The notes: generated by a model not told the origin, from the sequence alone. A stretch of DNA of 64,000 nt from Candidatus Nomurabacteria bacterium (GCA_029288775.1 JARIGQ010000004.1:3303-67302), one strand, 5' to 3'; shown: positions 4,438 to 49,142, counted from the first letter of the stretch. Made by a program: numbers and translations.

Positions 4438-5592
4438 ATGCCCCCTTACCAACCACACAATTCACAAGGAACACTTCCAGGAATGCCTCATGTCCCCCAA
4501 GGTCCTTTCATGACCGCCGCTACCGGTCCTATTCCGGTTGGCTATGATCCATCCAAGCCGGTTATTTCGCGCGGGGCTGGACGCGTGGATGTAAATGAAC
4601 GCAAGATCATAAACGGGGGTGGAGCGGATGTAGTGCAGCTATGGCCCATCAAGCACAAGTTTGCATGGGACGCATACAATGTGGGAAATGCCAATCACTG
4701 GTTGCCGACGGAAATTTCCATGCAGCTTGATATTGAGCAGTGGAGAAGTCAGTCAGTGCTTACGGCAGATGAGCGTCATGCGCTTAAGATGGTGCTCGGG
4801 TTCTTTACGACTGCAGACTCCATTGCGGCGAACAATCTTGTGCTTGCCTTCTACAAGCATGTGACGTCACCTGAGACGCGACTATACTTGCTTCGTCAGG
4901 CATACGAAGAAGCGATTCACACGCAAGCCTATCAGTACATCGTGGAATCACTTGGACTTGATGGAACGGAAATCTTCAACATGTATCGCGAAATCGACGC
5001 GATTTACAATAAGGAAGAATTCGTACTTTCTTTCAATCAAGGAATCTTTGATCCCAATTTCAAGACGGGGACATTTGAGGCAGATCAGAAGTTCTTGGAA
5101 AATGTCTGCGTCTTCTCGCTTATTCTTGAAGGCATATTTTTCTATTCATCATTTGCGGTGATGTTTGGATTTCAGCGACAGGGGAAGCTTGTCGGATCTG
5201 CAGAACAGATTCAGTACATCATGCGTGATGAGTCTAATCACATGGACTTCGGTATCAACATGATCAACACCATCAAGCAGGAACAGCCGGAACTCTGGAC
5301 ACCTACATTCGTGGAGCGTATCAAGGCTCTTGTGGACAAGGCGGTGAAGCTTGAGTACCAGTTTGCGGTGGATGTATTCCCGAAGGGAATCTTTGGACTA
5401 AATGCCGAAGGGTTCAAGCAGTACATTGAGTACATTGCAGATCGTCGCCTGATGCGTGTCGGTATTGATGCGGTGTATGGATCAGCAAACCCTTTCCCGT
5501 GGATGAGCGAAGCAGTGGATTTGGCTAAAGAAAAAAACTTCTTCGAAACTCGCGTAACTGAGTATAAAACGGGTGGTACTTTGGAATGGTAA
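4438..5592 (+). CDS. nrdB: Class I ribonucleotide reductase beta subunit (NrdB/R2), eukaryote/Chlamydia-like clade with an N-terminal extension
   Basis: Di-iron ligands and radical Tyr (FFTTADS, EEAIHTQAYQY), ILEGIFFYSSFA, RDESNHMDFGI, and C-terminal EKNFFETRVTEY. Alternative starts are possible at 4483 or 4510. Confidence 0.85.
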   Translation: MPPYQPHNSQGTLPGMPHVPQGPFMTAATGPIPVGYDPSKPVISRGAGRVDVNERKIINGGGADVVQLWPIKHKFAWDAYNVGNANHWLPTEISMQLDIEQWRSQSVLTADERHALKMVLGFFTTADSIAANNLVLAFYKHVTSPETRLYLLRQAYEEAIHTQAYQYIVESLGLDGTEIFNMYREIDAIYNKEEFVLSFNQGIFDPNFKTGTFEADQKFLENVCVFSLILEGIFFYSSFAVMFGFQRQGKLVGSAEQIQYIMRDESNHMDFGINMINTIKQEQPELWTPTFVERIKALVDKAVKLEYQFAVDVFPKGIFGLNAEGFKQYIEYIADRRLMRVGIDAVYGSANPFPWMSEAVDLAKEKNFFETRVTEYKTGGTLEW

Positions 5593-5630
5593 ATCAAAAC
5601 CGCGCCCCTCCGGGCGCGGTTTTGATTTCA
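5591..5630 (+). terminator. Rho-independent terminator after nrdB
   Basis: Perfect 17-bp stem AAATCAAAACCGCGCCC / GGGCGCGGTTTTGATTT with a CTCC loop and a T-rich 3' side, starting directly at the stop codon. Confidence 0.75.
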
Positions 5631-5693
5631 CTGCATCTACTGCATTACTATACTACTTGCTATACTGTGTGTATGTTAAAGGTCTCGCGTTCC

Positions 5694-6647
5694 ATGCCTG
5701 ATATTGCGGTTATTCGCGGAGGAAGAGAGGATTTTTCTTTATCGCTTTCTGAAGGGCAGGAGATACTTAAGTCACTTTCGAAAATCGGCTATAAGCCGCT
5801 GGATGTAATCGTGGATAAAGAGGGGAAATGGACTGCCCAAGGGTTGCCCACTGACGCGCATGCGATCTTTACGCGCGCACATACAATTGTGGATGTAACG
5901 AGAGATCGCAATGCGCCGCATGTTGCACTTGCTAAGAAAATGGGGGTACCACTTTTATTTTCTCCGGCAAACGATGTTCATCTTTCGCGTGAGGATATGT
6001 ATCGACTACTTCGCATGCAGGGATTTAAAGTACCCGATACAACGGTCGTGCGGGCCAAAGCGCCGCTCCAGGATTCACTCTTTCGTGATGTGTGGTCTCG
6101 CTATCACACGCCGCTTATGATTCGTCCACTTGTGAAGCGAAATGATGTAGCCTCCAAGTTGGTCACAAAATATGCTGATTTTGAAAAGATAGTGCGAGAG
6201 TACCATACAAAAGGGGTGGACGTGCATATACTTACGTATCGAAGACTGCCTACGTCATCCTTGATTGTCCTTCCGGATTTTCGCGGAGAAAAGGTATACA
6301 CGCCGGTATGGGTGGAAACGTTTGCAGGAATCAATGAGCTTCCGAATGTGTCTCATCGTATGCAGACGTATCTTCATGCTCCCGAGTTTCGCAAGGAACA
6401 AATGAAAAAGATTGCCACCTCAGTATATGAAGCATTGGAGCTTACAGGTCCCGCAATCATTGATGTCATTTATGATAACAATACGTACAAAGTAGTGAAT
6501 ATAGAAACGTCACCTTCACTTCGACCAGACGGGCGCTTCATGACCTCATTACGATCTACCGGTGTAGACATTGGTCAGTACATACATGAGCACATCAAGC
6601 GCGAAGTAGAAAGTGGTATCAATCCATTGTATGACTTCGCAAGATAG
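5694..6647 (+). CDS. D-alanine--D-alanine ligase-like ATP-grasp protein (divergent)
   Basis: MPDIAVIRGG...E..LSL.SG start typical of Ddl, a central ATP-grasp segment, and C-terminal IDVIYDNNTYKVVNIETSP (Ddl-like ...NE.NT.PG). The extended ORF begins at 5586 with an implausible N-terminus. Confidence 0.55.
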   Translation: MPDIAVIRGGREDFSLSLSEGQEILKSLSKIGYKPLDVIVDKEGKWTAQGLPTDAHAIFTRAHTIVDVTRDRNAPHVALAKKMGVPLLFSPANDVHLSREDMYRLLRMQGFKVPDTTVVRAKAPLQDSLFRDVWSRYHTPLMIRPLVKRNDVASKLVTKYADFEKIVREYHTKGVDVHILTYRRLPTSSLIVLPDFRGEKVYTPVWVETFAGINELPNVSHRMQTYLHAPEFRKEQMKKIATSVYEALELTGPAIIDVIYDNNTYKVVNIETSPSLRPDGRFMTSLRSTGVDIGQYIHEHIKREVESGINPLYDFAR

Positions 6648-40000: not shown

Positions 40001-42591
40001 CAATCGGTACAAGTTCTCTTGCCACGACACCGTCATTCCTTACTATTTTTGGTTCATCGACACTTCAATCCACAAACCTCTTTACTCTTGCATCGTCTAC
40101 TGGAGCTTCACTCTTTACCGTGACATCTGCAGGAAACGTAGGGATTGGTACCACTACTCCAGGTTCACTTCTCTCGGTACAAGGTGATGGATACTTTGGG
40201 GGTAACCTTACTGCCACGGGTACCATTACTTCACTTTCTGCAGGAAATAACTACTTTGCAGGAAACGTAGGCATCGGTACAACCACTCCAGCTAGAGTAT
40301 TGGAAGTTTTTGGAACATTTAATGTCGGCACGTCTTCACTCAGTCAGATTTTTGCAGATACTTCATCTAGACAAGTAGGTATTAACGCGACATCATCTTC
40401 TCTTATTTCCAACTCAAGCCTTACGATAGGTGCAACATCTTCTCTTTCTACAGGTATCTCAATAACAGGCATTACTCAAGGTACCGGATTTTCAGCCGCT
40501 TCCATTACAAGTGGTACTGCCCTAACTGCAAGCAACTTATCTACTGGAACAGGATTCAATCTTCCGGCTTTGACCTCAGGAACAGGAATAAATATTGGTT
40601 CATCTAACAATATATCTACCGCAAAGGGCTTAACCTTTAGCACTGCAAGCGGTGGCATGACTACGGCTTCTGCTATTAACATTACTGGTTCAGCTGCGAT
40701 GAACGCTGATTACTCAGGAGCACTTATCAATCTCGACTCAGTACGTAGCGTGTCCGTTGCTTCCACACGTTTCCATTCAGGAAATATGATGAAAATTGCT
40801 CCACAATACGGAGTTAACGGTTCCGGTTCTGCAACGCTTCTAGTTTCTGGTACTACTACCATGATTACCCGTACACTTAGTAACGCTTCCACAGGAGCAA
40901 CTTCATCCCTTCAAATCACTGCACCACTTTTCTCTCTCGCCAATCTTTGGAGCGGAAATACAGGTACTACAACAGACTCAAGCGCACTCTTTGATCTTTA
41001 TCAAGGCTTCGCAACATCTACTGGTACGCTTCTCCGTGCAAATAGCTTGGGGTCAGGTGCTCTTGCAACATTTGTAGGTTCTGGTAACTTCGGTATCGGC
41101 ACCTCCACACCTACGGCTAAGCTCGATGTATACGGAACAGGTTCTGCTCAGCCATTCCGTGTCTCTTCATCAACTAGCGCATCTCTCTTCGAAGTAGAAT
41201 CAAATGGAAACGTGGGTATCGGTACTACAACGCCTGGTTCACTTCTCTCCGTAAATGGTGATGGATACTTCGGAGGTAACCTTACTGCAACTGGTACGCT
41301 TTCGATCCTTAACAACTCTTCATTTACCGGAGCTGTTAACGCCTCTTCTACATTTGCTGTAACAGGAAATGCAACATTTTATGGCGCGATCAACGTTTCC
41401 GGTTTAGCAACTTTTGCAAACGCTTCAACAACCAACCTTTCGGTTGCTGCAGCTAGCTACTTCGGTGGAAACACAAGCGTTATGGATCAGAATGGAAACC
41501 TCGGGTTAGGTACAACTACTCCTGGACTTGCGCTCGATATCTGGACTGCGACAACTTCAACGATTGACATGCTTCGCATCGGAAGCGGAAATGGTATTGC
41601 GTTCCGTGTAGATTCTGCTGGCAATATTTTCTCAAATGGTGCAACGACAATCGGTGCTCCTGCTGACGTTGCGGAAAGTTATCCTGCACTTGAAGCTGTG
41701 GATGCGGGTACGGTGGTTGCATTTGGAACATCTACCGTCGCTTGGAGTTCGACTCGTGGAAGCGCGACATCGACCGCATCTTCATCGGATGTATACCAAA
41801 TCTCAGGCATCAAGAAGGCTCGTGATCAGTTCGAGGCAATCGGAATCGTGTCTACTCGCCCAGGACTTCACATTGGTGCGGATGTACAAAATGGCGTACC
41901 GGTAGCACTTGCTGGACGTGTACCGGTAAAGGTTACGGATGAAAACGGCGCGGTCAAGGCTGGAGATTTCCTTACCGTATCTCTTACTCGCCCCGGATAC
42001 GCTATGAAGCTTACTGGCGAAGGAAAGTCTATCGGACGTGCTATCTCAGACTACGTTCCAGGAAATGACAAAGTAATCGCGTATGTGGAGAATGGTTACC
42101 AGAAGGTTGATATGAATGGCAAGTCTGCTACGACGACAAACATGCTCACAACTGGAAACGTAGACCTTAATGCAAATGGCGTTGCGATCTACAACATCAA
42201 GAGCCTCGCGTCTGCATCCGGTGCATGGTCAATTTCTGAAGACGGTCGCATCATTGCAAAGGTAATCTGTCTTGAGGATGTATGTATCAATAAGGATCAG
42301 CTTACGAAGATCTTGAACTCCACAGGACAGACGGGAATGGTTGCAGGAACTAGTACTACAAGTAGCCCAGTAGATACAGTAAATACAATAGGCAATGGGA
42401 CGAGTACGGATGCGGTAAGTACAGTAGATACAGGCAACACTGAAACTACTGCATCTACTTCTCCTACTGCGTCCACTGGTTCTACTGGGTCGACTGCATC
42501 TACTGAAACCACTGGACCTACTGGGTCTGCTGAAACTACTGCACCCTCCGCTCCGGTATCGGTAGCGCCAAGTGACACTCAGACCCCATAA
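19096..42591 (+). CDS. Giant (7,831-aa) secreted/surface repeat protein, putative adhesin or fibre
   Basis: One uninterrupted ORF. It has an N-terminal signal/TM segment (HIALFVFSGLIFASSTAFAFAA), a Thr/Asn-rich repeat stalk, about 60 copies of a GxVGIGTTTPxxKLxVxG module, a globular C-terminal domain and a Thr/Ser/Gly tail. The extended ORF begins at 19027. Confidence 0.85.
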   Translation: MSKLSNSGFRKVLSRVANHIALFVFSGLIFASSTAFAFAALSYSAPRQPFASFKFAHTFSLSELSPQAVASKVFALSYTLPSVAQNVASLSRPLVASIPTDLGSGVTLADTLPVLALSLPVIPAGIPQAIAHEIATISLPQISLNIPALAVRPIDEHAVVLSGTEDRSIGVAGTGLTLVGGITPEDVVPHVLTSTTFTLSALSSKFATFTPPHASLALLPVTSKQGMVLGVSTTNTALAQTKKTLPLIDKLSLALYCSFTKNNVDRTRCNYDAIADGSIPVSTASSVAATTPAAIPATPSNLFTSNDQGVASPTFITKYITQYVGVPGTPGRDGKDGVNGVTSTVNGILPPAGLGSYIIPSYSSPSTAIGISTIGYLKDTTIENPTITQGTAVNLSLTTPILNSPTLKDAVFTGLSLFTSPASFTSTVAINSLTATSSVITNASTTNAYIANLFVDAATSTNSYVSQLVAASSTLSDAVITNSTTTNAYIANLVAASSTLTDLIATNAAFTNSTTTNAFISSLALVNGSTTNSTTTNSYITNLFTHNATTTNAIITNSTTTNAYITSLAAASTTIDDLVTTRATSTALFANLLSAIDTFITNLTATNLTATNATVANATTTNSTTTNAYVANLSTDNATTTNAYVTNLTASSTTIGDLITTRATSTAFFSTLLSAIDTFITNLTAINLNATNATIANATTTNSTTTNAYIENLSVGTSSATSLTIGGDLSVGGTSTFATTSSTYAAIDTASTTNLSGTNFWSTLATIISATITNLIATNATTTNATSTNFYASNGVIDNATTTNLFTQTLSVGNGYIQGDQSVQGSFNVAGTSTLGSNVFLNGNVVIGTSSNELLTVNSLINSDVTPAQNKVYDLGTPSFYWRTLYADSINVNSISAASTTISGTSNNSFTINSDNNTNDLEDSQLVFYRGLVTPNAILRWNSALSRLEANQSFKIQNETPSVGTTTLTVQAGAGQGTTNLFELLDNSGSKLAMFNSQGWLGIGTSSPVAALDVNGPIKSGGDVKNVLNINDKGSGNLQSTLRILTNIPYADGLQALDAITITGYDWRNSKPLSLRLVFYIFGGNFIQYGASSQGGLAPRISLGNVNGKVAILLDRSSGGGGGDWAFSTLSVDVMNNNNLWTQSDLSGWSYDYGNLSGASNVVALSYSSQLGNASTTGLTATNIFSTTLAVTGTSTFGTNGSNVGIGTTSPQATLEVAGAAAGLTVNRTHVQCGASIGLVNNSNVSNSWSFKNSDSPCTPGTLGNLYFIQNSTEKMVLTSGGVLGIGSTTPSLKLTVQGAAYIGGNIVATGTLSLGTSTLFTTSAGNVGIGTSTPLAKFAIVDSNQTSTSSSGAVGMANANLSIFTNQFGQDFGGSVGFGGYQGSSGQQTLFGQISGRKENASDPNARGYLAFSTLGTGAGVAYPFAERVRISSDGSLVINSNGYDATSTKLLIVKGSASQAVNLQEWQNSFGTALSVVDASGNLGLGTSTPGSKLSVQGSAYIGGNFTATGTLTTLGTGSSSIAGALGVGIASPSYFLDVVPPSGTAVDLFRVASSTSPGGALVVKNNGSVGIGTTTPLNTLVVSGPALGGITIDRGNSNSPNLTFSSNGTTILSQIRGVIGGGMAFTSSSLTEWGHFDASGNFGIGTSSPASPLHVYSNSSNAYIITDTSGTNNTGVQFRRDNTIKWQLFSDSLDNFGIFDGTNKIATIQRGAPANSLFVLANGNVGVGTSTPGSKLSVQGDSYLAGNVTATGTLTVLTSGTSRIGSVSRYVTMFDNGSGQVELAFNGSDANASRISTDNNDLWIRPATGVIGIAAGTTSPRLKIGSISSGWGMQTTLAAPMNFESLSVDINTNPFVFNRVGAWGGNPNVKLFKVQDAGNDVFSVGGVLNAINGLTVGPSATSGMVSLTAVGLDTNIPFAINAKGSGSINIGGTSTGNIVLATGGGSVAIGTSSPSSQLEVSGGAASSYLTLSTNSGVQATGIKLVASGTTTNWIIGSQGGAVTNLQFVSGAGNSLTLDSTANMVFSNTNNHSISIAQNSATNIPGKQLTVSAGNAALGLATNFDGGTLVLAAGQSTGTGTGKIQFQTSPAGSSGTATNTLITAMTILGGGNVGIGTSTPGSLFSVQGNSYIGGNETATGTLTVLGTGNSSFAGNVGIGTTTPGNPLVITASGVTSSLFSIASSTGANLVQLASDGVTGSSLFNASTGENRFNINPNGQYVRVSGAGVYGWSPSTNAGVSADTGLSRISAGVVAVGNGTTGSAAGTLVAGAIGIGTTTPSAKLMIDGTIANTNSGQGLVISATNGTTVGPRLAIFPNGNASAAIQTLVNGALNFLSSAGNVNMTIADATGNVGIGTSTPGSRLSVQGDSYFGGNLTATGTITSLSAGNSYFAGNIGIGTSSPTHALTFASTSSGIAFYNTSDQTTNYERFVEAWNPSNNTFNLFQSFGGSAANRSVRLGIAGGAGATAPDSYLDVVSNGTFNFRSANPAATTYTTLGLGALQNASSYNQTTVAITPTINQSGTGSYTALLINPTETGVGSGNNYLINAQVGGSTRMVLTNTGNLGIGTTTPLSKFVIDSGSAVIRGTNNNLQVVDNGTGRSFVFGVAGTSGGFFNNATIGDSILRASTGNKMMLGIDNGTGNAAPVLTISGTNVGIGTTTPGRYLTIQAVAGSSAGFDLADPNTNQVWSFINGTTGSPVGAGNFAIYDTTNQATRMVVSNAGNVGVGTTTPGSLLSVQGNGYFGGNLTATGTLSVLGSATSTFAGAVGIGTTTPSYNLSVVGNTYTSGSINFGGAGNNNLGVLSQVGTNDTYLSNHLHTQFGLWVRSTDTNRVKGMDQSSGNSSNLGLYVNFGEKMTIDTNGNVGIGTTTPGSKLSVQGDAYIGGNVTATGTFAIGTSTLFTNTAGQVGIGTTNPSYRLDVRTTGAATGLAIWDGSNGSIFGRFGITRVGATANTFSFINYPSYAFDATTTISSGNFGIGTTTPGSKLAVQGDGYFGGNLTATGTITALGGFTNFGSTTLTDASSTNLTATNFWSTLANLVTANITNASTTNLSATGATFGDASITNTLTVASNTSLATTTISGYLGVGTTSPSQLLTVGNNNQFTVSSTGTVAISSAGQLSFTGGSIWPIITRNTATGGLILNTQNAVTSSNSLLSIRTNGGSDAFTLLADGRLGLGTSTPASKLTIISPDNSQGTSIVAAYANNLTQGTSLRYDGLYAIGSNSSVDVRLVPQGVGRVLIPNGNVGIGTSTPLSVLHIEGTNSSAGGITLTSSAGNVNRFQIFPLGSISTAFKNMGGGDTQFQNSAGTAQLSIQTSTGNVGIGTTTPGSLLSVQGDSYFGGNVTATGTLSVLGSATSTFAGAVGIGTTTPQWKLSVEDPTSAFITLNNSTGNAGTFAGVRFQIAGKDRYTAALNAGGDQIYSRFNASGAYQNDVLALKSTGDVAFNTNQLYVTNATGNVGIGTSTPGTNLVVGNSGAFTVNSSGQVTTGSTLTMAGSNNAITAYNGIGGSGIFGLSRQNDVANASLQIAAYGGIGFTVNSAGGSITPASTSSSMFIATSGNVGIGTTTPTKSLSVINSSLGGDQLLLGSTGTANPAFLQMGVADTGSNTTVDLSAINNASQNAYVRLFRQTNTIGSKVFQILKGDGTANADTQITVAGTTFFNLGGGNVGVGSSSPVGRLAVTGSGLSNGIAFQITDASNTPRFTLQDNGTTTFGQLATNTNAILLSSQNGTLSEVYDNSDMRWSLDSNGSVRYGLSAGGTSQLGTLRLGSGGSVSPSSYSYITGGGAGQAQLNFFVGSTSSPSITLTNSGKVGVGTTSPVDPFHVIGNGRFMTSGSSEYLTVGTYDSNNAYLRYATFNVSRFVTGVDASDGKYKIGTGNDFSATKFAIDTNGNVGIGTTSPISVLHIVASNATISLQSTTTNGFSGQNMYDSNGNLAASFQYGNSAASVFPNAMFLGTRIANAPVIFISGGSASGGSTNERMRIDSNGNVGIGTSTPSYPLDVSGFINTDKNSGYKMDGLTVLYSTSTQQSVFVGQGAGAGIVSSAATTSVLRNTAMGYLALNLATSTGSNTAFGARTLSNVQSGAQSFNGTANTAVGAGSGFSVTTGFGNSSFGESSGGAVTTGAANTSLGYRAGNNITTGSNNVAVGGFTTAVGALFSNQTGSNNVAVGAAALAGTTSVSISSNTAVGHLAGFNMQGNNNTLLGYQAGYDMSTGSQNIVVGYYPTTNVGITTGSNNILIGQDLRTGLSQTGSNQLNIGNLIFATGLGSGSTLSTGNVGIGTSTPGQKLDVVGNIRLTGTGSNSIEFYDSTNAANGPQVLSSITGINTVNHGSGALQFFTAMNNTLTEAMRIDRTGNIGMGTTSPGSKLSVQGDGYFGGNLTATGTLNVLGTGSSTFASDLTVNGDNGRIYGNYLFTDPGSAGSTTLRLGTQGVARLLLSSADATFTGNIIPNGDNTKTLGTLAARFNGLNIGTGNSTFAGNVGIGTTTPNQKLVISGTSLSATQPEISLYNTGSGGIGWSLISTDNNNSALGGKFAILPTGGSSVVAPFIISGNNVGIGTSTPGSKLSVNGDSYLAGNVTATGTLNVLGTGTSTFVGALGVGVANPNAVFHVSSPTSTSNVVARIDNTSGSYGWLFQNAGGTTSRIALYGMDNTGAQTLRLDPAAASYFNGGNVGIGTTTPGSLLSVQGNGYFGGNVAATGTLAIGTSTLYTTAQGNVGIGTTTPLSTLYVEGSSPVLTVSSTGGRQITIAPATGAIDSVNSALHFNRFSSQAVSIGFSSASHLRVGQAPENSFGNTALLYIGNTETGTPGFVLDKAPGQTSDILQVRSATTTTGDIFTIKSNGNVGIGTTTPSQLLTVGNNNQFTVTSAGAVNIPSGNLYALTMTTGAIANNNSNTYANLVFGNAGLTASRNVADSNPSLIVNQANASSTGDILDLQAAGITKVAFAQNGNVGIGTTSPLYALEVASSSAFGVPSATQAPILIRGGASGTAMLTFTRTVGATAQYSWALAGGGLSFSDDLNGGVTTNVFGDNNINQLYIGQRSRITDTSGKPSLLAGQSYSNLAGSDINAGLFTIRGGLGNGAGTPGDITFETGNVLATGSTPQSATRRMTILANSGNVGIGTTTPGSLLSVQGNGYFGGNFTATGTITSLGTATSSFVGALGVGTSTQSYKFAVMGTNGIGVDTESAGGSAVGLVSINNATIRLNTANFVQLEGTQGTRFTNNGASVEYGRITSAGLGIGTTTPGSKLSVQGDSYLAGNVTATGTLNMLGTSSSTIAGALSIGTTSAPAALLDVGGNTRIGLNTISFLGTATISSQGQININSGSTRDIQLNTNTGNFSVLGNGNSNNFTVLGSNGNVGIGTSSPSYKLEVNGAANIRVATDQNMRFGSNSNGAFLATYLDTQASFNTIQLYGSTILLNPNAGGNVGIGTTTPLGSKLAVQGDGYFGGNLTATGTLTVLSSALFGGNVLPNVTNTYDLGSASARWNNLFVNNFTASSSVADYFTAASTTATSTFNGNVVIGSGSFAYDASSTQTTISNLAIGNLAFDQDAGQVSWVDLPISGATATGTIMSYTSQLGGNNMLTVYGEHDGQGGIQNPRFGFGTTTPTSYFHIAATGTNPFFTVGTSTNQGLFTILSNGYVGLGTSTPSSNLYIQGSDVTPNLTVASSSGATQFTVLANGNVGIGTSTPGSKFSVTGDSYFGGNVYATGTLTSVGAITSSTATASSSIAGGLKIASGGLGSLQNGLTVGNTTGLNHTVDIGATGMATLRLSDSGGRSITFGSNRNSYDAISGTAAFVGVQDGGSLLLRATQGTSNHVILQPGATGTVYAIGQSFAVVPNPSATYSALFNVGTGSSTQQLVAVATTTNAGIFNILANGAVGIGTTTPTTPLTVVGNSSFFPSTNGVVTIASASWNANAPLKMGQIGSSGAIQFARASDGNGVASIGYASGTNSTDFRIGSNGGFGTINFDVAGVNSVMTLDSNSRVGIGTTSPGSLFSVQGNGYFGGNITATGTITSLATGTSTLNGNLSLAYQTGIFTTSNGTSTLLQVTRSDGTQPGLFRTNGWRDFTVSGAFGVGYDLATTTGSAGAGNLLVSGNIGIGTTSPAAALHLTGSSNMALRIQSSGVNGYAELKNASVNGSPSQLNVSSDNNDDTQPAFTINAFRTTGGVVGNLNAAKSLLSVAASGTSVFDIKQSGNVGIGTSTPQSALEITGANKKLTFSLATTTTTFSQIYNDGNNLNIWSQSNSGSLINFQVNAQTLSLAPNLFGASNYWGFDGQTVTGRDFGIRSGAGMIFTTNTRNFASPALYLASSSAIALIGVGTSSPSATLFVQGSASSTLNPFAVASSSGTNLFTINPSGNVAIGMTPVSAGLVINGIDNGAGGSPTGAGGLRVYRPNSGSQYISLDYSDGSQGYLTANGDKGFNLVNYGSSTGNNIRIVNNYANASVSNGIFVSTSNNVGIGTTTPGSLFSVQGNAYVGGNVTATGTLTTLGTATSSVMGSLVIGTSTMTSVAGQLDVFASAAGVGSYIRGNNPSNSNNLVLGIANGFNIAPTAMTGFYNDSGNNVGLRFLDTNGAVSRAKIGTNSDTYFAVGLGNVGIGTSTPGSKFSVTGDSYFGGNITATGTLNVFNNIRISGSGNGLYFPDGTFMGTAAGTSTGITSPTDLALAADNDTDGSGVLTFSTFGLERMRVLNNGSIGIGTTSPAGLLGVNGDGYFGGNLTATGTLFSSNIDTDANNATLRLKTQGITRLTIDNSNTQFNNNAIPNVDNTRSLGSLSARWNSLNIGTGTSTFAGAVGIGTTTPAEALEVANGNIQIGFNQFLKGRSASGASFNLIGVNSSGNTTVGNLNHLIFIASGAERARIDGPTGNFGIGTTSPGSLLSVQGNGYFGGNLTATGTITGASTITASGQITSGNIGFQTIGNGNGTWFGRQLTITGGTYIVSAANGTTFNSATTSFNGAVAIGTSSLATTPSFLTIFGSSTLQSTNLFTLASSTGASLFTVTSAGNVGIGTTTPGSLLSVQGDGYFGGNLTATGTITSLSAGNNYFAGNVGIGTTTPARVLEVFGTFNVGTSSLSQIFADTSSRQVGINATSSSLISNSSLTIGATSSLSTGISITGITQGTGFSAASITSGTALTASNLSTGTGFNLPALTSGTGINIGSSNNISTAKGLTFSTASGGMTTASAINITGSAAMNADYSGALINLDSVRSVSVASTRFHSGNMMKIAPQYGVNGSGSATLLVSGTTTMITRTLSNASTGATSSLQITAPLFSLANLWSGNTGTTTDSSALFDLYQGFATSTGTLLRANSLGSGALATFVGSGNFGIGTSTPTAKLDVYGTGSAQPFRVSSSTSASLFEVESNGNVGIGTTTPGSLLSVNGDGYFGGNLTATGTLSILNNSSFTGAVNASSTFAVTGNATFYGAINVSGLATFANASTTNLSVAAASYFGGNTSVMDQNGNLGLGTTTPGLALDIWTATTSTIDMLRIGSGNGIAFRVDSAGNIFSNGATTIGAPADVAESYPALEAVDAGTVVAFGTSTVAWSSTRGSATSTASSSDVYQISGIKKARDQFEAIGIVSTRPGLHIGADVQNGVPVALAGRVPVKVTDENGAVKAGDFLTVSLTRPGYAMKLTGEGKSIGRAISDYVPGNDKVIAYVENGYQKVDMNGKSATTTNMLTTGNVDLNANGVAIYNIKSLASASGAWSISEDGRIIAKVICLEDVCINKDQLTKILNSTGQTGMVAGTSTTSSPVDTVNTIGNGTSTDAVSTVDTGNTETTASTSPTASTGSTGSTASTETTGPTGSAETTAPSAPVSVAPSDTQTP
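20068..20118 (+). other. Short collagen-like G-X-Y x5 segment within the giant protein
   Basis: GVPGTPGRDGKDGVNGV. Confidence 0.4.
20392..21252 (+). repeat. Asn/Thr-rich 11-residue-periodic repeat region including a ~240-bp tandem duplication
   Basis: Repeats of the NSTTTNAYI[AT]NL type; two near-identical ~80-aa units (DDLVTTRATSTALFANLLSAIDTFITNLTATNLTATNATVANATTTNSTTTNAYVANL...) spanning 20800-21240. Confidence 0.8.
22090..41545 (+). repeat. Array of about 60 degenerate coding repeats (GNVGIGTTTPGSKLSVQGDGYFGGNLTATGTL modules with variable spacers)
   Basis: The motif recurs at irregular 50-150 aa intervals. Many copies share about 90 % nucleotide identity over about 150 bp (for example 27280-27430 versus 29060-29210). 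Confidence 0.85.
41485..42330 (+). other. C-terminal globular domain of the giant protein (tail-fibre C-terminal / intramolecular-chaperone-like), followed by a T/S/G-rich tail
   Basis: Non-repetitive segment ADVAESYPALEAVDAGTVVAF...GIVSTRPGLHIGADVQNGVPVALAGRVPVKVTDENGAVKAGDFLTVSLTRPGYAMK..., similar in architecture to the C-terminal domains of phage or bacterial tail-fibre-like proteins. Confidence 0.45.
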
Positions 42592-42623
42592 TAGGAGGAG
42601 GGGAGAGGGGATAGCGGAAACGG

Positions 42624-42708
42624 TAATTTCAGTACATTACAGTACAATACAGTAATCAGTGGATGTGATAGAAGATAGTAACAAGTACATGCAGTAAATA
42701 CAGTGAAT
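42624..42708. repeat. Intergenic CAGTA-array element A (CAGTA arm only)
   Basis: CAGTA at 42630, 42640 and 42650 (exact 10-bp phase), CAGTG at 42657, CAGTA at 42692 and CAGTG at 42701. Confidence 0.7.
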
Positions 42709-42729
42709 GCTAGGCGCAGGAAATATAAC

Positions 42730-45051
42730 ATGAAAGAAAATATGAAAAATAGAATAAGTAAGAACGTAGCAGCGATAAAAAGGCAAAGCCTTTTTATCGC
42801 TGTATTACTGATCGCCCTTTTCTGTAGTACTGTATGGACTAAAATCACTATATCAACTGTATTTACTGTACCCACTGCGTCTGCTGCCATTGTTCCCGTT
42901 CAGCCCTCCAATCAGGGTCTTGTTGGATATTGGAAGTTTGATGAAGGGGAAACGGCAACAGCAAAGGATTATTCCGGCAATCGTCTCAATGGAACTTTAA
43001 ATAATTTTTCCAGTACACCCTCTACCACAAGCGGATGGCAGACAAAGGGGAAAATAAATGGAAGTATTGCGTTGGATGGTGTGGATGATTATGTGCATAT
43101 TGGTACCCCGTCCGCTTTAAATATTACAGGAGATCTAACTCTTTCTGCTTGGGTAAATCCGCGAGCTTACACAAGTAATCCGTGTGGAGGAACTGCTCAA
43201 TTTCCGGTCTTTGGAAGAATCACTAATAGTAGATCTCCCTATGTTTTATCTATTGCCGCTAATTCTATCCTTTTTGGTAATAACCTTACTTCGGGAGGAG
43301 ATGTAAATAATTGGCAATATTTGATCCCCTCAACTTCGAATCCTGTTAATAAATGGGTACATGTAGCAGCGGTACGCTCTGGTACTACAATGATGGTTTA
43401 TAAAAATGGAGTTTTATTAGCTACTTCTACTCTTTTAGGTCCTAGTGTAAACACCTCATGGTCCGGGATACGTTTTGGGTTTGATGGATGTGGGAATTAT
43501 TACGCATCTGGATCCTTGGATGAATTATATATTTACAATCGAGCCTTATCTTCTTCTGAAATTGCTTATCTTGCAAAAAATGCCCCAACGTCAATTGGTG
43601 CTACGGCCACTTCCACTGCTTCATCGCTTACAAATGGCTTACAGCTCTACTACTCTTTTGATGGGAAAAATACTACGCCTACTTCTATTCCAGATATGTC
43701 TGGCAATGGGAATACAGGGACCGGATCATCAAGTACTGCCTTTGCTACCGCAGGGTCACTTAGTACGGGGAAAATAGGGCAAGGGGTTTTACTTACTTCT
43801 ACAACCACTGGTGCCTCGTATGTTCAGTATATTGATACAGGTTCCTCGACTTTTAACATTACGAATAAACTTACCATTTCTGCCTGGATTAAACCTAACG
43901 CAGCAGGGATCAAGACAAACACCATTCTTTCAAATGCCCGCGACTGCGGTGGTTGTGGCACATATAAAGGATTTAATTTCGGTAGCACTGCCGCCTATAA
44001 TGGTCTTAGTTTTTCCTATTTCGATTCTAATTCTTCGGGTCCGTTTGGTCTTACTGTGAGTAATTACTTTCCTCCAATTAATACGTGGACACATTTGGTA
44101 GTAACATTTAATAACAAAGTCACTAAAATTTATGCTAATGGAGTTTTAATTTCAAGTGGTACTATCGGAGGTACAGGTACAATAGGTACTCCTTTTAGTT
44201 TTGACAGTTTTGTTGGACGATATGGTTTTAGTCCAGGGTTCGGTTCTTCAAATGCTGTGTATGATGAGGTGCGTCTTTATAACCGAGATTTAAGTGTGAG
44301 TGAAATACAGCAGCTCTATAAGCTTGGGCAAGTGAAGCTTGCAAGCTCGGACCCCATATCTGCTCAATCAGGCACCGCTTCAGGACTCGTTGCTCATTTT
44401 ACTTTTGATGGCAAGAATATGACTTCAACATCTACTCTCGATAGTTCTGGTGGAGGAAATACCGGAACCTTAAACGGATCACCTCGTACAGATATTGGAA
44501 AAATTGGACAGGGATTAAGGTTTAATGGGAATGGTCAGTATGTTTCTCTTCCGAACTCCTCTCTTGAGCTTTCTGTACCGCTTTCATTTTCTGTATGGAT
44601 TAAACCAGTTCTACCTTCCTCTGCCGCAGGTTTAATTACTACCGATAAATCAGGAAGTAGTGTTCACTCAGGAGCTTGGATTGATTTACAAAGCAACGGA
44701 GCGCTAGGTCTAAACTACGGAAATAATACTATATGCGGCCCGACGGGTAGAAGATCATTTGCTACAGGTGGAGGGGTTATACAATCAAATAAATGGTACC
44801 ACGTTGTGGGGATTATACGTGGTCCAGTGGATATGAGTATTTATGTAAATGGAGTAAATATAAGCGGGTCATATAGCGGATCTGGTACCAATATTGTTTA
44901 TAGATCCGATTCAGGTCCTAGAATTGGAAGGGAAGATAATTGTTTAGCGAATTATTGGGACTATAGTGGATTAATGGATGATGTCCGTATCTATAATAAG
45001 GCACTTTCTGCTGCAGAAGTTCAACAGCTCTATAAATTAGGAGGAAAGTAG
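42730..45051 (+). CDS. Secreted protein with three LamG/concanavalin A-like lectin domains (Laminin_G_3 type)
   Basis: N-terminal TM/signal segment (LFIAVLLIALFCSTVW). Three repeats of the LVGYWKFDEG...DYSGNRLNGTL...GKINGSIALDG.DDYV ... LYIYNRALS pattern. The ORF track starts at GTG 42703; ATG 42730 is preferred. Confidence 0.75.
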   Translation: MKENMKNRISKNVAAIKRQSLFIAVLLIALFCSTVWTKITISTVFTVPTASAAIVPVQPSNQGLVGYWKFDEGETATAKDYSGNRLNGTLNNFSSTPSTTSGWQTKGKINGSIALDGVDDYVHIGTPSALNITGDLTLSAWVNPRAYTSNPCGGTAQFPVFGRITNSRSPYVLSIAANSILFGNNLTSGGDVNNWQYLIPSTSNPVNKWVHVAAVRSGTTMMVYKNGVLLATSTLLGPSVNTSWSGIRFGFDGCGNYYASGSLDELYIYNRALSSSEIAYLAKNAPTSIGATATSTASSLTNGLQLYYSFDGKNTTPTSIPDMSGNGNTGTGSSSTAFATAGSLSTGKIGQGVLLTSTTTGASYVQYIDTGSSTFNITNKLTISAWIKPNAAGIKTNTILSNARDCGGCGTYKGFNFGSTAAYNGLSFSYFDSNSSGPFGLTVSNYFPPINTWTHLVVTFNNKVTKIYANGVLISSGTIGGTGTIGTPFSFDSFVGRYGFSPGFGSSNAVYDEVRLYNRDLSVSEIQQLYKLGQVKLASSDPISAQSGTASGLVAHFTFDGKNMTSTSTLDSSGGGNTGTLNGSPRTDIGKIGQGLRFNGNGQYVSLPNSSLELSVPLSFSVWIKPVLPSSAAGLITTDKSGSSVHSGAWIDLQSNGALGLNYGNNTICGPTGRRSFATGGGVIQSNKWYHVVGIIRGPVDMSIYVNGVNISGSYSGSGTNIVYRSDSGPRIGREDNCLANYWDYSGLMDDVRIYNKALSAAEVQQLYKLGGK

Positions 45052-45079
45052 GAGCAGTGGAGATGGCAGGTTTCGGTAA

Positions 45080-45202
45080 AATACAGTGACTCAGTAAGTT
45101 GCAGCAGGTAAGTAATTTCAGTAAATACAGTAATGCGAGAGTGATTACTTGTTTACTGACACTACTGCGTACACTGGGCTACTGTGCCGCTGAAATTACT
45201 TG
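45080..45202. repeat. Intergenic CAGTA/TACTG element B (both arms)
   Basis: CAGTG/CAGTA at 45085, 45092, 45119 and 45128; then TACTT/TACTG/CACTG at 45146, 45154, 45163, 45172, 45180 and 45197 (8-9-bp phase). The inverted pair AAGTAATTTCAG / CTGAAATTACTT. Confidence 0.75.
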
Positions 45203-45251
45203 AATTTTCGCTCTTGCTAAAAAGTGTAGAATAAGGTAAAATAAGTGCATT

Positions 45252-45437
45252 ATGGTAGTACGAATGAGACACACCCGAGCGCATACGGCTAACCGTCGCT
45301 CACACCACGCGCTTAAGGCAGCGAACCTTGTTGCTTGCAAGAACTGTAACGCCATGAAGACTCCGCACCGCGTTTGTGACGCCTGCGGCTATTATCGTGG
45401 CCAGAAAGTGCTTACAATAAAGGCAAAGGTGCAGTAA
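45252..45437 (+). CDS. rpmF: 50S ribosomal protein L32
   Basis: RRSHHALKA...C.NC...K.PHRVC.CGYYRG, the L32 signature with a Zn-ribbon. Confidence 0.8.
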
Positions 45438-45553
45438 ATTAAGTAGTTTCAGTATATACAGTGCCCAGTAAGTTGCATTAGGTAAGTAATTTCAGTAGCA
45501 CGATTACTGAGCCACTGAAACTACTGCATGCACTGGACTACTGAAATGTACTA
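45430..45553. repeat. Intergenic CAGTA/TACTG element C (both arms); overlaps the rpmF stop codon
   Basis: GCAGTAAAT includes the rpmF TAA. CAGTA/CAGTG at 45450, 45459, 45466 and 45493; then TACTG/CACTG alternating at 45504, 45513, 45522, 45531 and 45539, and TACTA at 45549 (9-bp phase). Confidence 0.75.
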
Positions 45554-45663
45554 CCCTAATGGGCTATTGAAATGCACTGCCTCCACTTTCCACAATTTTC
45601 GTTTTTCTATCTGCACATGTGCGCTACACTATACTGATAAGTAAGTCATAGATCTTTTCCTTC

Positions 45664-46563
45664 ATGAGTACTCGCCACATAGCCCGAACACTCGCTCTCC
45701 AAACACTTTTTGAACTCGACATGAAAGGTGAGCTTGGCATTACTCAGGATGCCGTAGAGCCTATTCTTATACGCAATAGGGACGAGTTTGGCGAAGGCAT
45801 AAAGGATGCCTCATTTGCAAAAGATATTTTGACCAACGCTCTTTCGCGCCGTATCACTATTGATGACATTATTACACGTGCGGCTCCAGATTGGCCACTC
45901 GAAAAAATTAGTACCGTAGATAGGAACATTTTACGCATTGGACTTACCGAGCTTTTGTTTGGTGATCGCGGACAAGTTCCTCCGAAGGTAGCTATCGACG
46001 AAGCAATAGAACTTGCAAAAACCTATGGTGGAGAAACTTCGGGCCGCTTTGTAAACGGTGTACTCGGCGCTATATATAAGGAAATGGGCGAACCTGAAAA
46101 GGAACAGACCACTAAGACCAAATCCGAGCATATGAAATCCGCTCCGAAAGAAATGCTTGCGGGTGCGGTCGTCCTTTCGAAAACTGATGGCAAACTCCAT
46201 GTCGGACTTGTCCATGATGTGTTTGGTTATTGGACGCTTCCAAAAGGACGACTTGAAGAGGGAGAGGATTTGGAGAAGGGGGCAAAGCGTAAAATTGAAT
46301 CTGAAATCGGTATTCCAGTTACTATTATGGATAAGCTTGGTGAGAATGAATATATCGCTAATAAGCCGGAAACTGGAAAGGTGGTCAAGCATGTAAGCTA
46401 TTTCTTGGCTACCGCAAAATATATTCCGCTTCAGCTCGAAAAGAAGACTGGCCTTGATGATGCTAAGTGGTTTGATGCTGATGAAGTAAGTGAGCTTCGT
46501 ATTTATGATGACATTAAGCCGCTTATCGAAAAGGCACTGTCTCTTGCTGAAAAGATTGTATAA
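45664..46563 (+). CDS. nusB: NusB (transcription antitermination) domain fused to a C-terminal NUDIX hydrolase domain
   Basis: N-terminus: ARTLALQTLFELD, LRIGLTELLF, AIDEAIELAKTYGGETSGRFVNGVLG (NusB). C-terminus: Nudix box PKGRLEEGEDLEKGAKRKIESEIGI (GX5EX7REUXEEXGU), after GAVVLSKTDGKLHVGLV. Confidence 0.8.
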   Translation: MSTRHIARTLALQTLFELDMKGELGITQDAVEPILIRNRDEFGEGIKDASFAKDILTNALSRRITIDDIITRAAPDWPLEKISTVDRNILRIGLTELLFGDRGQVPPKVAIDEAIELAKTYGGETSGRFVNGVLGAIYKEMGEPEKEQTTKTKSEHMKSAPKEMLAGAVVLSKTDGKLHVGLVHDVFGYWTLPKGRLEEGEDLEKGAKRKIESEIGIPVTIMDKLGENEYIANKPETGKVVKHVSYFLATAKYIPLQLEKKTGLDDAKWFDADEVSELRIYDDIKPLIEKALSLAEKIV

Positions 46564-46575
46564 TTCGGTGAATCT

Positions 46576-47268
46576 ATGACTCTTCAAGAATTTGAGCGCT
46601 CCATTTCAGTAACCTTCAAGAATAAGGCTCTTTTGGAGCAAGCGTTTATTCATCGTAGTTTTATTAATGAAAATCCAAGAAGCGGTTTGGAACATAATGA
46701 ACGCTTGGAATTTTTAGGGGATGCTGTCCTTGAGCTTGTGGTGACAGAATTTTTGTATGAAACCTATCCTCATCACAACGAAGGAGACCTGACCGCCTAC
46801 CGCTCAGCCCTTGTGAATGCGGTGACATTGGGCAAAGTGGCAGATGATCTTGGGTTTAACGATTTGATGAAGCTCTCCAAAGGAGAGGCGAAGGATGTGT
46901 CACGTGCGCGTTCGTCTATCTTGGCGGATGCGTACGAAGCATTCGTTGGGGCGCTTTATTTGGATCAAGGGTATAAAGAGGCAAAAGTATTTATTTCTAA
47001 AACGGTACTCATTAAAACAGAGGATATCGTCAAGCAAGGATTGTACAAGGATGCTAAAAGTTTCGTCCAAGAAAAAGCTCAAGAGGTGAGAAGTGTTACT
47101 CCTGCTTATCGTGTGCTTGGAGAGGAAGGGCCGGATCATGATAAACGATTCCGCGTAGGTATTTATTTTGGTGAAGAATTGATAAGTGAGGGTGTAGGTA
47201 AGAGCAAGCAAGAAGCAGAAACCGAAGCAGCTCGCGCCGCACTTATTAAAATGCAGTGGATGGAGTAA
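46576..47268 (+). CDS. rnc: Ribonuclease III
   Basis: ERLEFLGDAVLEL signature, ADAYEAFVGALYLD, and a C-terminal dsRBD (KSFVQEKAQEV...GVGKSKQEAETEAARAAL). Confidence 0.9.
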   Translation: MTLQEFERSISVTFKNKALLEQAFIHRSFINENPRSGLEHNERLEFLGDAVLELVVTEFLYETYPHHNEGDLTAYRSALVNAVTLGKVADDLGFNDLMKLSKGEAKDVSRARSSILADAYEAFVGALYLDQGYKEAKVFISKTVLIKTEDIVKQGLYKDAKSFVQEKAQEVRSVTPAYRVLGEEGPDHDKRFRVGIYFGEELISEGVGKSKQEAETEAARAALIKMQWME

Positions 47269-47380
47269 ATACAGTATATACAGTAATTTCAGTGGCCCAG
47301 TAGGGTAGTACATTTCAGTAAATACAGTATTTAGTGGCACAATAGATACACTAAACCTAGTGGTTTCAGTTCGTTGCAGT
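47266..47380. repeat. Intergenic CAGTA-array element D (CAGTA arm only); begins at the rnc stop codon
   Basis: GAGTAAATACAGTATATACAGTAATTTCAGTGGCCCAGTAGG...TTTCAGTAAATACAGTA; CAGTA/CAGTG at 47272, 47281, 47290, 47298, 47316 and 47325 (9-bp phase). Confidence 0.75.
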
Positions 47381-47406
47381 GGTAGTTTTTGTAGTACACT
47401 TTGTGA

Positions 47407-47766
47407 ATGCTGGAGTATAAAGATCTGATTGTTTGGCAAAAGGCTTTTGATCTGTCATTGCATATTTACAAAGCAACTGAACAATTTCCGGAGGTAGAAA
47501 AATTTGGTTTGCAATCACAAATGCGAAGAGCTGCTGTTTCTATCCCTTCTAACATTGCCGAAGGTAGTCGACGTGGAACTCATAAAGATTATATTTCTTT
47601 TCTTAGAGTTGCCGACGGGTCTGCGGCAGAATTGGAGACACAATTGTTGTTGGCTCATGCATTAAAGTATATGTCTGAACCTCAATTTACCACTTCGCAG
47701 GAACTTCTTATGGAAGTACGCAAAATGCTGCCTTCAGTGATAGGTAGGTTGCAATCTTCTTCTTAA
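47407..47766 (+). CDS. Four-helix-bundle protein (23S rRNA intervening-sequence protein family, TIGR02436-like)
   Basis: Family-typical MLEYKDLIVWQKAFDLSLHIYKATEQFP..EKFGLQSQMRRAAVSIPSNIAEGSRRGTHKDYISFLRVADGSAAELETQLLLA. Confidence 0.8.
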   Translation: MLEYKDLIVWQKAFDLSLHIYKATEQFPEVEKFGLQSQMRRAAVSIPSNIAEGSRRGTHKDYISFLRVADGSAAELETQLLLAHALKYMSEPQFTTSQELLMEVRKMLPSVIGRLQSSS

Positions 47767-47768
47767 AT

Positions 47769-47820
47769 GTACTATAGTACTGAAACTACTGTGTTTACTG
47801 AAATTACTTTATTTTTACTT
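47769..47820. repeat. Intergenic TACTG-array element E (TACTG arm only)
   Basis: TACTG at 47779, 47788 and 47797; TACTT at 47806 and 47816 (9-bp phase). Its reverse complement matches element D over about 25 nt (AGTAATTTCAGT....CAGTAG). Confidence 0.75.
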
Positions 47821-47822
47821 GT

Positions 47823-48554
47823 ATGCGTTTAGATCAGGCGCTTGTAACACGTGCTTTATGCGAATCACGCACAGAAGCGCAGGAGCTTATCGAAAAGTCA
47901 TTGGTGCTTGTAAATGGGGTGATTGTTACTAAGCAAACAAAGGCAATCAAGGATACGGATGAATTGAGCGTACAAGGAAAGCGAAGTTTTGTATCCCGGG
48001 GAGGGGAGAAACTTAAAGGTATTCTGCAGGATATTTATGGAGATGAGGAAGTCATACAAAGCCAGGTGCAAGGAAAACAGGCACTTGATATTGGTTCATC
48101 TACCGGCGGGTTTACGGATTGCTTGCTTTCGTATGGAGCTGCGCACGTTGATGCGGTTGATGTGGGCACAGACCAATTTCATGCTCGATTACGAGGAGAT
48201 ACACGAATTACGCTTTTTGAATCTACAGACATACGTGCATTCCAAGCTTCCCGTGAGTATGATATCGTGGTTGCTGATCTTTCTTTTATTTCCCTTGAGC
48301 CTTTGTTTGAAACTATTCTTTCTTTTGGAAAAAATGGAACGGCATTTTTTCTTCTCATTAAGCCGCAGTTTGAAGTGGGGAAAGGAAATACGAAAAAAGG
48401 CATTGTAAAAGATATGGAGCTTGTGCTTTCACTTCTTAAAAAATATGAAGTCATCGCCAAATTACATGGAATGACTGATTTACAAATACTTCCGTGTCAT
48501 ATTCAGGGAGGTGAGGGTAATCAGGAATTTTTCTTATACGGAGTGTGTGCATAA
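47823..48554 (+). CDS. tlyA: TlyA-family rRNA 2'-O-methyltransferase (S4 domain plus FtsJ-like MTase)
   Basis: MRLDQALVTRALCESRTEAQELI..VLVNG (S4), FVSRGGEKL, LDIGSSTGGFTDCLLSYGAAHVDAVDVGTDQ. Confidence 0.85.
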   Translation: MRLDQALVTRALCESRTEAQELIEKSLVLVNGVIVTKQTKAIKDTDELSVQGKRSFVSRGGEKLKGILQDIYGDEEVIQSQVQGKQALDIGSSTGGFTDCLLSYGAAHVDAVDVGTDQFHARLRGDTRITLFESTDIRAFQASREYDIVVADLSFISLEPLFETILSFGKNGTAFFLLIKPQFEVGKGNTKKGIVKDMELVLSLLKKYEVIAKLHGMTDLQILPCHIQGGEGNQEFFLYGVCA

Positions 48555-48556
48555 GA

Positions 48557-48596
48557 TGCAAAGCAAAACCGCCCTTCCGGGCGGTTTTGCTTTGCA
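48557..48596. terminator. Bidirectional intrinsic terminator shared by tlyA (+) and the convergent RRM gene (-)
   Basis: TGCAAAGCAAAACCGCCC-TTCC-GGGCGGTTTTGCTTTGCA, a perfect 18-bp stem with A/T-runs on both sides. Confidence 0.8.
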
Positions 48597-48615
48597 TTAA
48601 TCTGCTGCAGACAGA

Positions 48616-48897: not shown

Positions 48898-49000
48898 TGA
48901 TGTAGAAACTAATTGTTAACAATAAGCCCTAGCACACATTCCTAAAAACGTGGAGTTGCTTATGATCTCATACTACCACATCTAGGGTAAATAGTAAACA

Positions 49001-49138
49001 CAGTGGGGTAGTAATTTTAGTAGCCCAGTGTATGCAGTAAATGCAGCACATTTCAGTAATGCGATGATGAATGTACTGAAATTACTACCTAAGGGTATCT
49101 ACTGTGTCACTGGGTGTACTGCCCCACTGGGTCTACTT
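49001..49138. repeat. Intergenic CAGTA/TACTG element F (both arms)
   Basis: CAGTG/CAGTA at 49001, 49026, 49035 and 49054; TACTG/CACTG at 49073, 49083, 49100, 49108, 49117 and 49126; TACTT at 49134. Confidence 0.75.
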
Positions 49139-49142
49139 GCAT

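Follow-up and report, generated by a model that had tools for sequence, protein, structure and literature searches.

A four-helix-bundle gene between inverted tandem-repeat arms in a Candidatus Nomurabacteria operon: a candidate intervening-sequence-type cassette

The rnc and tlyA genes of a Candidatus Nomurabacteria bacterium (GCA_029288775.1 JARIGQ010000004.1:3303-67302; the 64,000 nucleotides analysed here are referred to as the window) are separated by a small gene for a four-helix-bundle (4HB) protein that is bracketed by two arrays of a short tandem unit, element D upstream and element E downstream (Table 1). The two arrays stand in opposite orientation and share a unit of ~9 nt with the core [C/T]AGT[A/G] (YAGTR). 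An initial annotation of the sequence had proposed that a transcript spanning D and E would fold into a long stem with the 4HB open reading frame (ORF) in its loop, in the manner of the intervening sequences (IVSs) of 23S rRNA, and had suggested that the position immediately 3' of the RNase III gene might reflect an autoregulatory site for rnc. The IVS-like geometry is supported here, both at this locus, where a PF05635 gene lies in the loop of a predicted stem, and across the protein family; the link to rnc is not.

Elements D and E and their predicted stem

D and E flank the 4HB ORF essentially where they had been placed, and they do so with a complementarity far beyond chance. Successive cores are most often 9 nt apart (23 cases), less often 8 nt (12) or 10 nt (5), and the spacers of 4 nt between them have nearly zero information content. 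A repeat search finds inverted pairs between the two elements in several registers, the best of which span 30 nt (83% complementary) and 21 nt (90%), in keeping with the earlier report of a match of about 25 nt between D and the reverse complement of E. At -39.7 kcal/mol, the best D:E duplex has z=-5.4 relative to shuffled versions of E, and of 425 other genomic windows of 147 nt not one pairs with E as well as D does. The same stem is retained when the 581-nt transcript is folded as a whole by minimum free energy (MFE; z=-3.4), and the partition function gives it 48 pairs, distributed over 7 helices and mostly with P of ~0.9.

Pairing with E involves no more than the first ~55 nt of D; the units beyond 47315 have no partner, and D folded alone has no structure (z=+0.3). 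E pairs nearly as well with the arms of three gene-less hairpins of the window (B, C and F, described below), and the complementarity is therefore a property of the repeat family, not of D and E alone. At E<=1 no Rfam covariance model matched any of the elements D, E, B, C and F. The RNase III gene had been said to end exactly where D begins: its stop codon does lie inside the first D unit, but the stem starts 18 nt inside rnc. At the base of the predicted stem (47804-47824) the tlyA start codon is sequestered through pairing with the final codons of rnc. Since a ribosome that terminates on rnc would open this part of the stem, translational coupling of the two genes is possible.

The protein in the loop

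The TIGR02436-like identity assigned earlier to the ORF between D and E holds, with profile scores far above the curated cut-offs: the 119-residue product matches PF05635 at E=2.9e-40 (137.2 bits, cut-off 33.8) and TIGR02436 at E=1.6e-37 (128 bits, cut-off 24), and its only family matches are PF05635 and bAvd. The R-x3-S-x3-N-x2-E motif described for the 4HB family (PMC3936711) is present as R41, S45, N49 and E52 (RRAAVSIPSNIAEG), and the R, S, N and E columns are invariant in a 30-sequence alignment of the family. The protein is homologous to the solved structures 2GSC (E=2.8e-21) and 2RLD, each with five chains, and by homology it would form a homopentameric ring. Assignment as Avd, the accessory protein of diversity-generating retroelements (DGRs), was rejected, as the score of 41.2 bits with the NF033474 equivalog model falls short of the cut-off (80) and there is no reverse transcriptase; the neighbours are rnc and tlyA.

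Inverted arms across the 4HB family

Loci with relatives of the 4HB gene were fetched from one genome per species, giving 80 loci from Patescibacteria, Bacteroidota, Clostridia, Gammaproteobacteria, Acidobacteriota, Ignavibacteria and other phyla, and about 90 other genomes were compared overall. Flanks were scored by the best inverted alignment of the 150 nt upstream with the 150 nt downstream of the gene, with 190 ORFs from the same loci as controls. The median score is 14 for 4HB genes and 8 for the control ORFs, and 53/77 loci exceed the 95th percentile of the controls (Mann-Whitney p=4.6e-21); alignment of the flanks in direct orientation gives no signal in 4HB loci relative to controls. 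The best partner of the upstream arm is the downstream arm of its own locus in 44 of 81 loci. Inverted, self-pairing flanks are thus a general hallmark of the 4HB family, and the arrangement at rnc and tlyA follows a rule instead of being an accident of the locus.

Most of these arms are tandem repeats. Repeats with periods of 5-11 were called by TRF in 63/82 upstream and 63/82 downstream flanks, compared with 32% and 26% for controls, and heptamers account for 49 of the 63 upstream tandem repeats. The units are lineage-specific and include TTAGCTT, TTAGGTA, TAGGCAA, GAGTACT, TTAGTGG, GCCTTAA and GGTTTYC; alignment of arms between lineages is not feasible. The arrays of the window itself were missed by TRF because its 9-mers are too degenerate, and a density scan with the core motif was used in their place. 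The two arms differ in strand composition: G is enriched in the upstream arm (GC skew +0.37, above zero in 66/79 loci) and C in the downstream arm (GC skew -0.33, below zero in 64/79 loci; p=1.7e-13). Both neighbours share the orientation of the 4HB gene in 54/70 loci, at median distances of 61 and 46 nt, and none of the 40 nearest homologous loci that were checked is in an rRNA context. Full-text searches of the literature found no paper that links 4HB genes to flanking tandem-repeat arms outside rRNA, and the family-wide layout is apparently undescribed so far.

In Xanthomonas, the orthologue of the crystallised XCC0516 (PDB 2GSC) lies between accB and accC (L105 and L107, L-numbers denoting individual loci). 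It is preceded by GGGAATC GGGAGTG GAGAATG GGGAATC and followed by the reverse complement, which ends at the accC start; the arms occupy 1925-2000 and 2330-2372 in L105, and L107 is arranged likewise. Plasmid-borne 4HB homologues are mostly from Nostocales, and one of them, in Nostoc punctiforme, has five CAGGAGT units upstream. On plasmid pANA02 of Anabaena sp. 90 (L103, 1360-1990) a 4HB gene with ACAGGTG/CACCTGT heptamers as arms stands in a type I-D CRISPR-Cas operon, where its neighbours are cas6 and cas4. The presence of 4HB genes inside cas loci was noticed earlier (PMC3936711), and this association may reflect insertion of the cassette rather than function.

The site between rnhB and dnaE is a second orthologous cassette site, common to L001 and L098. 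L001 also holds a second, divergent 4HB paralogue (5561-5896) between dnaE and secG, with the unit TTAAGT upstream and ACTTAA downstream; since this unit is a different one, a single genome can hold cassettes with different units. In a member of the Thermodesulfobacteriota (L047, 2400-2700) three tandem blocks of ~95 nt, each made of GGGGCAAAG-type and GAACATC heptamer runs, lie just upstream of a 4HB gene.

Insertion of the cassette between rnc and tlyA

Relatives of the window's Rnc were compared in eleven metagenomic loci. Three of them (L083, L086 and L088, with Rnc 72-77% identical) keep the order rpmF-nusB-rnc-tlyA with an rnc-tlyA spacer of 0-55 nt and have no 4HB gene and no CAGTA array anywhere, the contig of L086 being 775 kb in length; in the relatives the spacer between rpmF and nusB, the site of hairpin C, measures 60-100 nt and is without an array. 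The closest relative found, L094, was reached through the 4HB homologue P0005. Its Rnc and NusB are 84% and 79% identical to those of the window, and it is the only relative with the cassette at this rnc|tlyA site, its 4HB gene being 64% identical to that of the window. The arms of L094 are short (43 and 37 nt) and consist of AGTTNNN heptamers unlike the unit of the window, yet they still pair at -26 kcal/mol; hairpins are absent from the sites that correspond to B, C and F.

By comparison with these relatives, the stretch of 554 nt that separates rnc from tlyA (47269-47822) is an insertion, and the cassette either entered before the lineages of the window and L094 split or was lost in the other relatives. 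Thereafter the arms turned over but remained complementary. The presence of the cassette at the same site in L094 is accounted for by common descent, and the adjacency to rnc is inherited, not functional. Neither rnc nor tlyA nor nusB is found near the 4HB gene in any of 82 other 4HB loci, and with relatives at 72-77% identity that do without the cassette, the proposed special link to rnc, including an autoregulatory site, finds no support.

Two further observations concern these relatives. The contig of L085, with Rnc 77% identical, ends 55 nt past the rnc stop codon in AGTA-rich sequence (1170-1226, tagtagtaagtac...), where the assembly may have broken off within a repeat arm of similar kind. 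L086 carries insertions of ~700 nt (1504-2270 and 5397-6122) in the spacers that match those of hairpins B and F, and one of the two contains a perfect G+C-rich hairpin of 21 bp.

Gene-less hairpins around the cassette

The density scan of the window finds 10 array arms, compared with 0.38 in shuffled sequence, and 9 of the 10 lie within 5 kb of the 4HB gene. Besides D and E they form hairpins B, C, F and G, which contain no gene, are built of the D/E unit with its YAGTR core, and cluster around the cassette (Table 1). B, C and F are stable hairpins of this unit, in agreement with the hairpins hypothesised in the initial annotation, and are located between co-directional genes. The three are mutually only 58% identical, and the invariant columns are the cores. 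Hairpin G consists of a reverse array (42438-42541) within the 3' end of the 7854-aa ORF and a forward array (42630-42696) in the following spacer. The last ~35 residues of the ORF (TTASTSPTASTGSTGSTASTETTGPTGSAETTAP), a Thr/Ser-rich tail, are the translated reverse TACTG array of hairpin G, and a repeat arm appears to have been absorbed into the coding sequence. B, C, F and G are specific to the lineage of the window and probably arose there, around the cassette.

The only array of the window far from the 4HB gene is a half-array directly 3' of a G+C-rich intrinsic terminator (Table 1). Among 19 matches to TTTCAGTA, those at 25-35 kb in the giant ORF are a coding motif (LFSV/LFSI) and were not counted as arrays. 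In 519 kb of other loci YAGTR arrays are found only beside 4HB genes. Gene-less hairpins that share the unit of the local 4HB arms are also present, close to the 4HB gene, in L011, in L025 and twice in L059 (Ignavibacteriaceae).

Table 1. Coordinates of the cassette, its neighbours and the repeat arrays in the window
Feature	Position	Strand	Remarks
Lone half-array	5629-5667	+	5 reverse TACTG-type units without a partner arm
7854-aa ORF	19027-42591	+	
Hairpin G	42431-42705	+	z=-4.1; loop contains the stop codon of the 7854-aa ORF
782-aa ORF	42703-45051	+	
Hairpin B	45078-45208	+	Between 782-aa gene and rpmF; MFE -35.9 kcal/mol, z=-2.2
rpmF	45252-45437	+	
Hairpin C	45441-45556	+	Between rpmF and nusB; MFE -35.8 kcal/mol, z=-3.8
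nusB-NUDIX fusion	45664-46563	+	
rnc (RNase III)	46576-47268	+	Stop codon TAA 47266-47268
Predicted stem, 5' strand	47251-47315	+	Overlaps the 3' end of rnc by 18 nt, stop codon included
Element D	47262-47400	+	Array of ~14 units NNNN[C/T]AGT[A/G], period 8-10 nt
4HB gene, 119 aa	47407-47766	+	PF05635 / TIGR02436 profile match
Predicted stem, 3' strand	47765-47824	+	From 4HB stop codon into tlyA ATG (47823)
Element E	47767-47815	+	4-5 units in reverse orientation (TACTG)
tlyA	47823-48554	+	Start codon ATG 47823
Hairpin F	48990-49139	-	Between ABC-F and RRM-protein genes; z=-6.4 (minus strand), -5.0 (plus strand)

Genes surrounding the cassette

On the plus strand the 7854-aa and 782-aa ORFs are followed by rpmF, the nusB-NUDIX fusion, rnc, the 4HB gene and tlyA, and 3' of tlyA an ordinary terminator precedes genes for an RRM protein and an ABC-F protein, both on the minus strand; the gene names of the locus were all confirmed by profile searches. 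Ordinary G+C-rich intrinsic terminators are found in the window at 48560-48600 and 5596-5625. NusB carries a C-terminal NUDIX hydrolase domain, a fusion that is kept in the relatives L083, L086, L088 and L094. There is no rRNA gene in the 64-kb window, Rfam at gathering threshold yields a single tRNA, and neither the PADLOC search for defence systems nor a phage search gave a match.

Interpretation of the cassette

What the analysis shows is the predicted pairing of the arms, the insertion between rnc and tlyA, and an architecture common to the family, polarity and co-orientation included. The explanation favoured here, with a probability of roughly 0.55, is that D-4HB-E is an operon-embedded cassette of the IVS type, the arms of which pair in the transcript into an RNase III-type duplex. 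The cassette would consist of a promoterless PF05635 gene between two inverted arrays of a short tandem unit and would be transcribed together with the genes of its host. In the transcript the G-richer upstream arm would pair with the downstream arm, and, both arms being periodic, pairing could occur in several registers even with unequal unit numbers. The resulting interrupted duplex of ~48 bp would close off the 4HB message and present a generic substrate for RNase III. Cleavage of the modelled D:E stem by this enzyme is plausible; it would free a 4HB message whose ends are paired and would separate the messages of rnc and tlyA, interrupting the operon without terminating transcription. The opposite skews of the arms, together with the co-orientation of the gene, argue for a strand-specific constraint at the level of RNA rather than a symmetric DNA end.

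Several points weigh against this explanation. Transcription across D and E and cleavage of the stem are both steps that we infer in this organism, as is any role for the protein. The stem is A/U-rich and interrupted, its longest perfect helix being 10 bp, and ~90 nt of D consist of surplus units to which E offers no partner. Conserved cores with free spacers are not something that pairing alone would demand, and they hint that some factor recognises the sequence specifically. Despite a protein divergence of ~36%, the ORF has stayed intact at orthologous sites, and the protein therefore matters, yet a stem processed by RNase III assigns it no role. The gathering of gene-less hairpins of the cassette unit around the gene is likewise left unexplained.

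The conserved cores, the intact ORF and the clustered hairpins keep a second reading in play, one that is compatible with an RNA stem. By analogy with RAYT genes and their REP sequences, the units could be recognition sites of the pentameric 4HB protein, with the cassette as master copy and the gene-less hairpins as targets in trans, serving regulation or spread. Such a reading would suit the location of 9 of the 10 array arms of the window within 5 kb of the 4HB gene, the restriction of YAGTR arrays in the 519 kb of other loci to the vicinity of 4HB genes, the sharing of local units by gene-less hairpins in the window and in L011, L025 and L059, and the bracketing of the Xanthomonas gene by GGGAATC, a unit published from that genus as ~186 intergenic arrays (PMC4692102). 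It would also suit a family with five-chain structures in which the homologue Avd binds RNA stem-loops (bioRxiv 10.1101/2023.10.23.563531). The unit tracks protein sequence weakly, however (Mantel r=0.07, p=0.02), and this co-variation does not discriminate between the hypotheses. In addition, the orthologous cassettes of the window and L094 differ in unit, such that specificity would need to drift fast, and shared units may also stem from common descent or local copying; recognition by the protein is put forward as a tentative alternative, with the odds against it.

Two other accounts do without RNA processing. [quoted passage not shown] We consider it improbable: the cassette has no transposase or recombinase and measures only 554 nt, no target-site duplication is seen at 47268/47823, symmetric double-stranded ends have no need of G-rich/C-rich polarity or of a co-oriented gene, cassettes persist at orthologous sites over long divergence, and hairpins B, C and F, at 58% identity, are not recent copies. 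Less credible still is that the hairpins are terminators, attenuators or mRNA-stabilising stem-loops unrelated to RNase III, with the 4HB gene between two of them by chance. They are indeed intergenic and thermodynamically stable, but a scan finds no intrinsic terminator at B, C, D, E, D:E or F, and a terminator reading was rejected on these grounds. The stems are long, A/U-rich and without a U-tract, while ordinary G+C-rich terminators are used elsewhere in the genome, and D, being unstructured alone, needs E 450 nt away. Cassettes also lie upstream of essential, co-transcribed genes (dnaE in L001 and L098, accC in Xanthomonas) and so cannot be strong terminators, and chance flanking is excluded by the family-wide flank statistics.

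Implications

Returning to the IVS-type cassette as the preferred explanation, three puzzles that have been treated separately come into contact here, namely the role of the ORFs in 23S IVSs, which dates from the early 1990s, the occurrence of 4HB genes in cas, acc and dnaE operons, and the function of the abundant intergenic heptamer repeats in Xanthomonas, cyanobacteria and Beggiatoaceae. The data suggest that they are one phenomenon, a cassette with self-pairing periodic arms accompanied by gene-less hairpins of the same unit. A wider generalisation, which must be regarded as speculative and probably too broad, is that PF05635 proteins are the missing partner of the heptamer-repeat hairpins: each 4HB gene would sit in the master copy of its own repeat, the pentamer would bind or propagate the arrays, and 23S IVSs would be copies that landed in rRNA. 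The repeat families concerned would perhaps be GGGAATC of Xanthomonas, the cyanobacterial STRR-type repeats, TAACTGA of Beggiatoa and the CAGTA hairpins of the window. If the three puzzles are indeed one phenomenon, the question becomes testable in culturable bacteria, for example Xanthomonas citri with its accB-4HB-accC arrangement, ~186 arrays and available RNA-seq data, and 4HB genes should not be annotated as functional partners of their neighbours, contrary to what has been proposed for cas loci and for rnc. Other culturable carriers are X. campestris, Thiohalocapsa halophila DSM 6210 (L028) and strains of Winogradskyella or Flavobacterium (L020, L035). What most merits following up is the association of 4HB genes with short-repeat hairpins throughout the family.

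Comparison with known systems

REPtrons, in which a RAYT gene is associated with REP/BIME sequences, resemble the present system in that a gene is flanked by inverted copies of a dispersed repeat of the genome and gene-less copies are found in intergenic regions. The unit of D and E is common to B, C, F and G, and the Xanthomonas gene is likewise flanked by the GGGAATC unit of its genome, so that the flanks are of the REPtron kind. Unlike a REPtron, however, the window encodes a small helical bundle and not a Y1 (HUH) transposase, and its repeats are periodic arrays where those of REPtrons are single palindromes. The Correia/NEMIS elements of Neisseria are reportedly co-transcribed inverted-repeat elements that are cut by RNase III, an observation said to be that of De Gregorio et al. 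(2002-2003). They too are intergenic hairpins co-transcribed with flanking genes, and RNase III processing alters the fate of the mRNA, but in contrast to the cassette of the window they carry no gene, and neither their defined terminal inverted repeats nor their TA target duplication is seen there.

Avd is likewise a homologous four-helix-bundle pentamer, and the RNA stem-loops that it binds adjoin its own gene (bioRxiv 10.1101/2023.10.23.563531). In contrast to Avd systems, the cassette has no reverse transcriptase and no pair of template and variable repeats, and consists of only 554 nt between rnc and tlyA.

Short tandem intergenic units that often form convergent stem-loop pairs are also a feature of published heptamer arrays, which are transcribed and differ in copy number between strains. 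The cyanobacterial short tandem repeats known as STRR sequences are said to go back to Mazel et al. 1990. The arrays of Xanthomonas include 70-75 convergent pairs and are mostly transcribed, with their function unexplained, and GGGGAYT arrays of Nostoc are likewise intergenic heptamers (PMC4692102); TAACTGA arrays are found in Beggiatoaceae, Cyanobacteria and Bacteroidetes and have no known binder (PMC4679880). The published Xanthomonas unit is exactly the unit that brackets the Xanthomonas 4HB gene, and neither paper (PMC4692102, PMC4679880) mentions a 4HB gene. The window differs from the published heptamers in having a unit of period 9 with free spacers, and from the TAACTGA arrays in that the latter are almost all direct and not inverted.

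The closest likeness is to the IVSs of 23S rRNA, which are located in helix 9, 25 or 45 and are cut out by RNase III with no re-ligation of the rRNA. Their ORF-containing forms (in Leptospira and Coxiella burnetii, and with ORFs of the Xanthomonas-type S23p/IVP kind) carry the same PF05635 family in the loop, and complementary flanks form a long stem, as they are predicted to do in D-4HB-E. Comparison with true IVSs relies on PMC4990558, none of the 40 loci checked being in rRNA. In the Coxiella IVS the ORF is closely preceded by 3-4 GACAGAT heptamers, variable in number between strains, the first of which is where RNase III cuts (PMC4990558). The stems of both Coxiella and the window thus contain short tandem repeats, those of the window being a degenerate 9-mer and not a heptamer. 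Unlike a 23S IVS, the cassette is located outside rRNA, in an operon between two protein-coding genes; placed in a helix of 23S rRNA, it would be called an ORF-containing intervening sequence.

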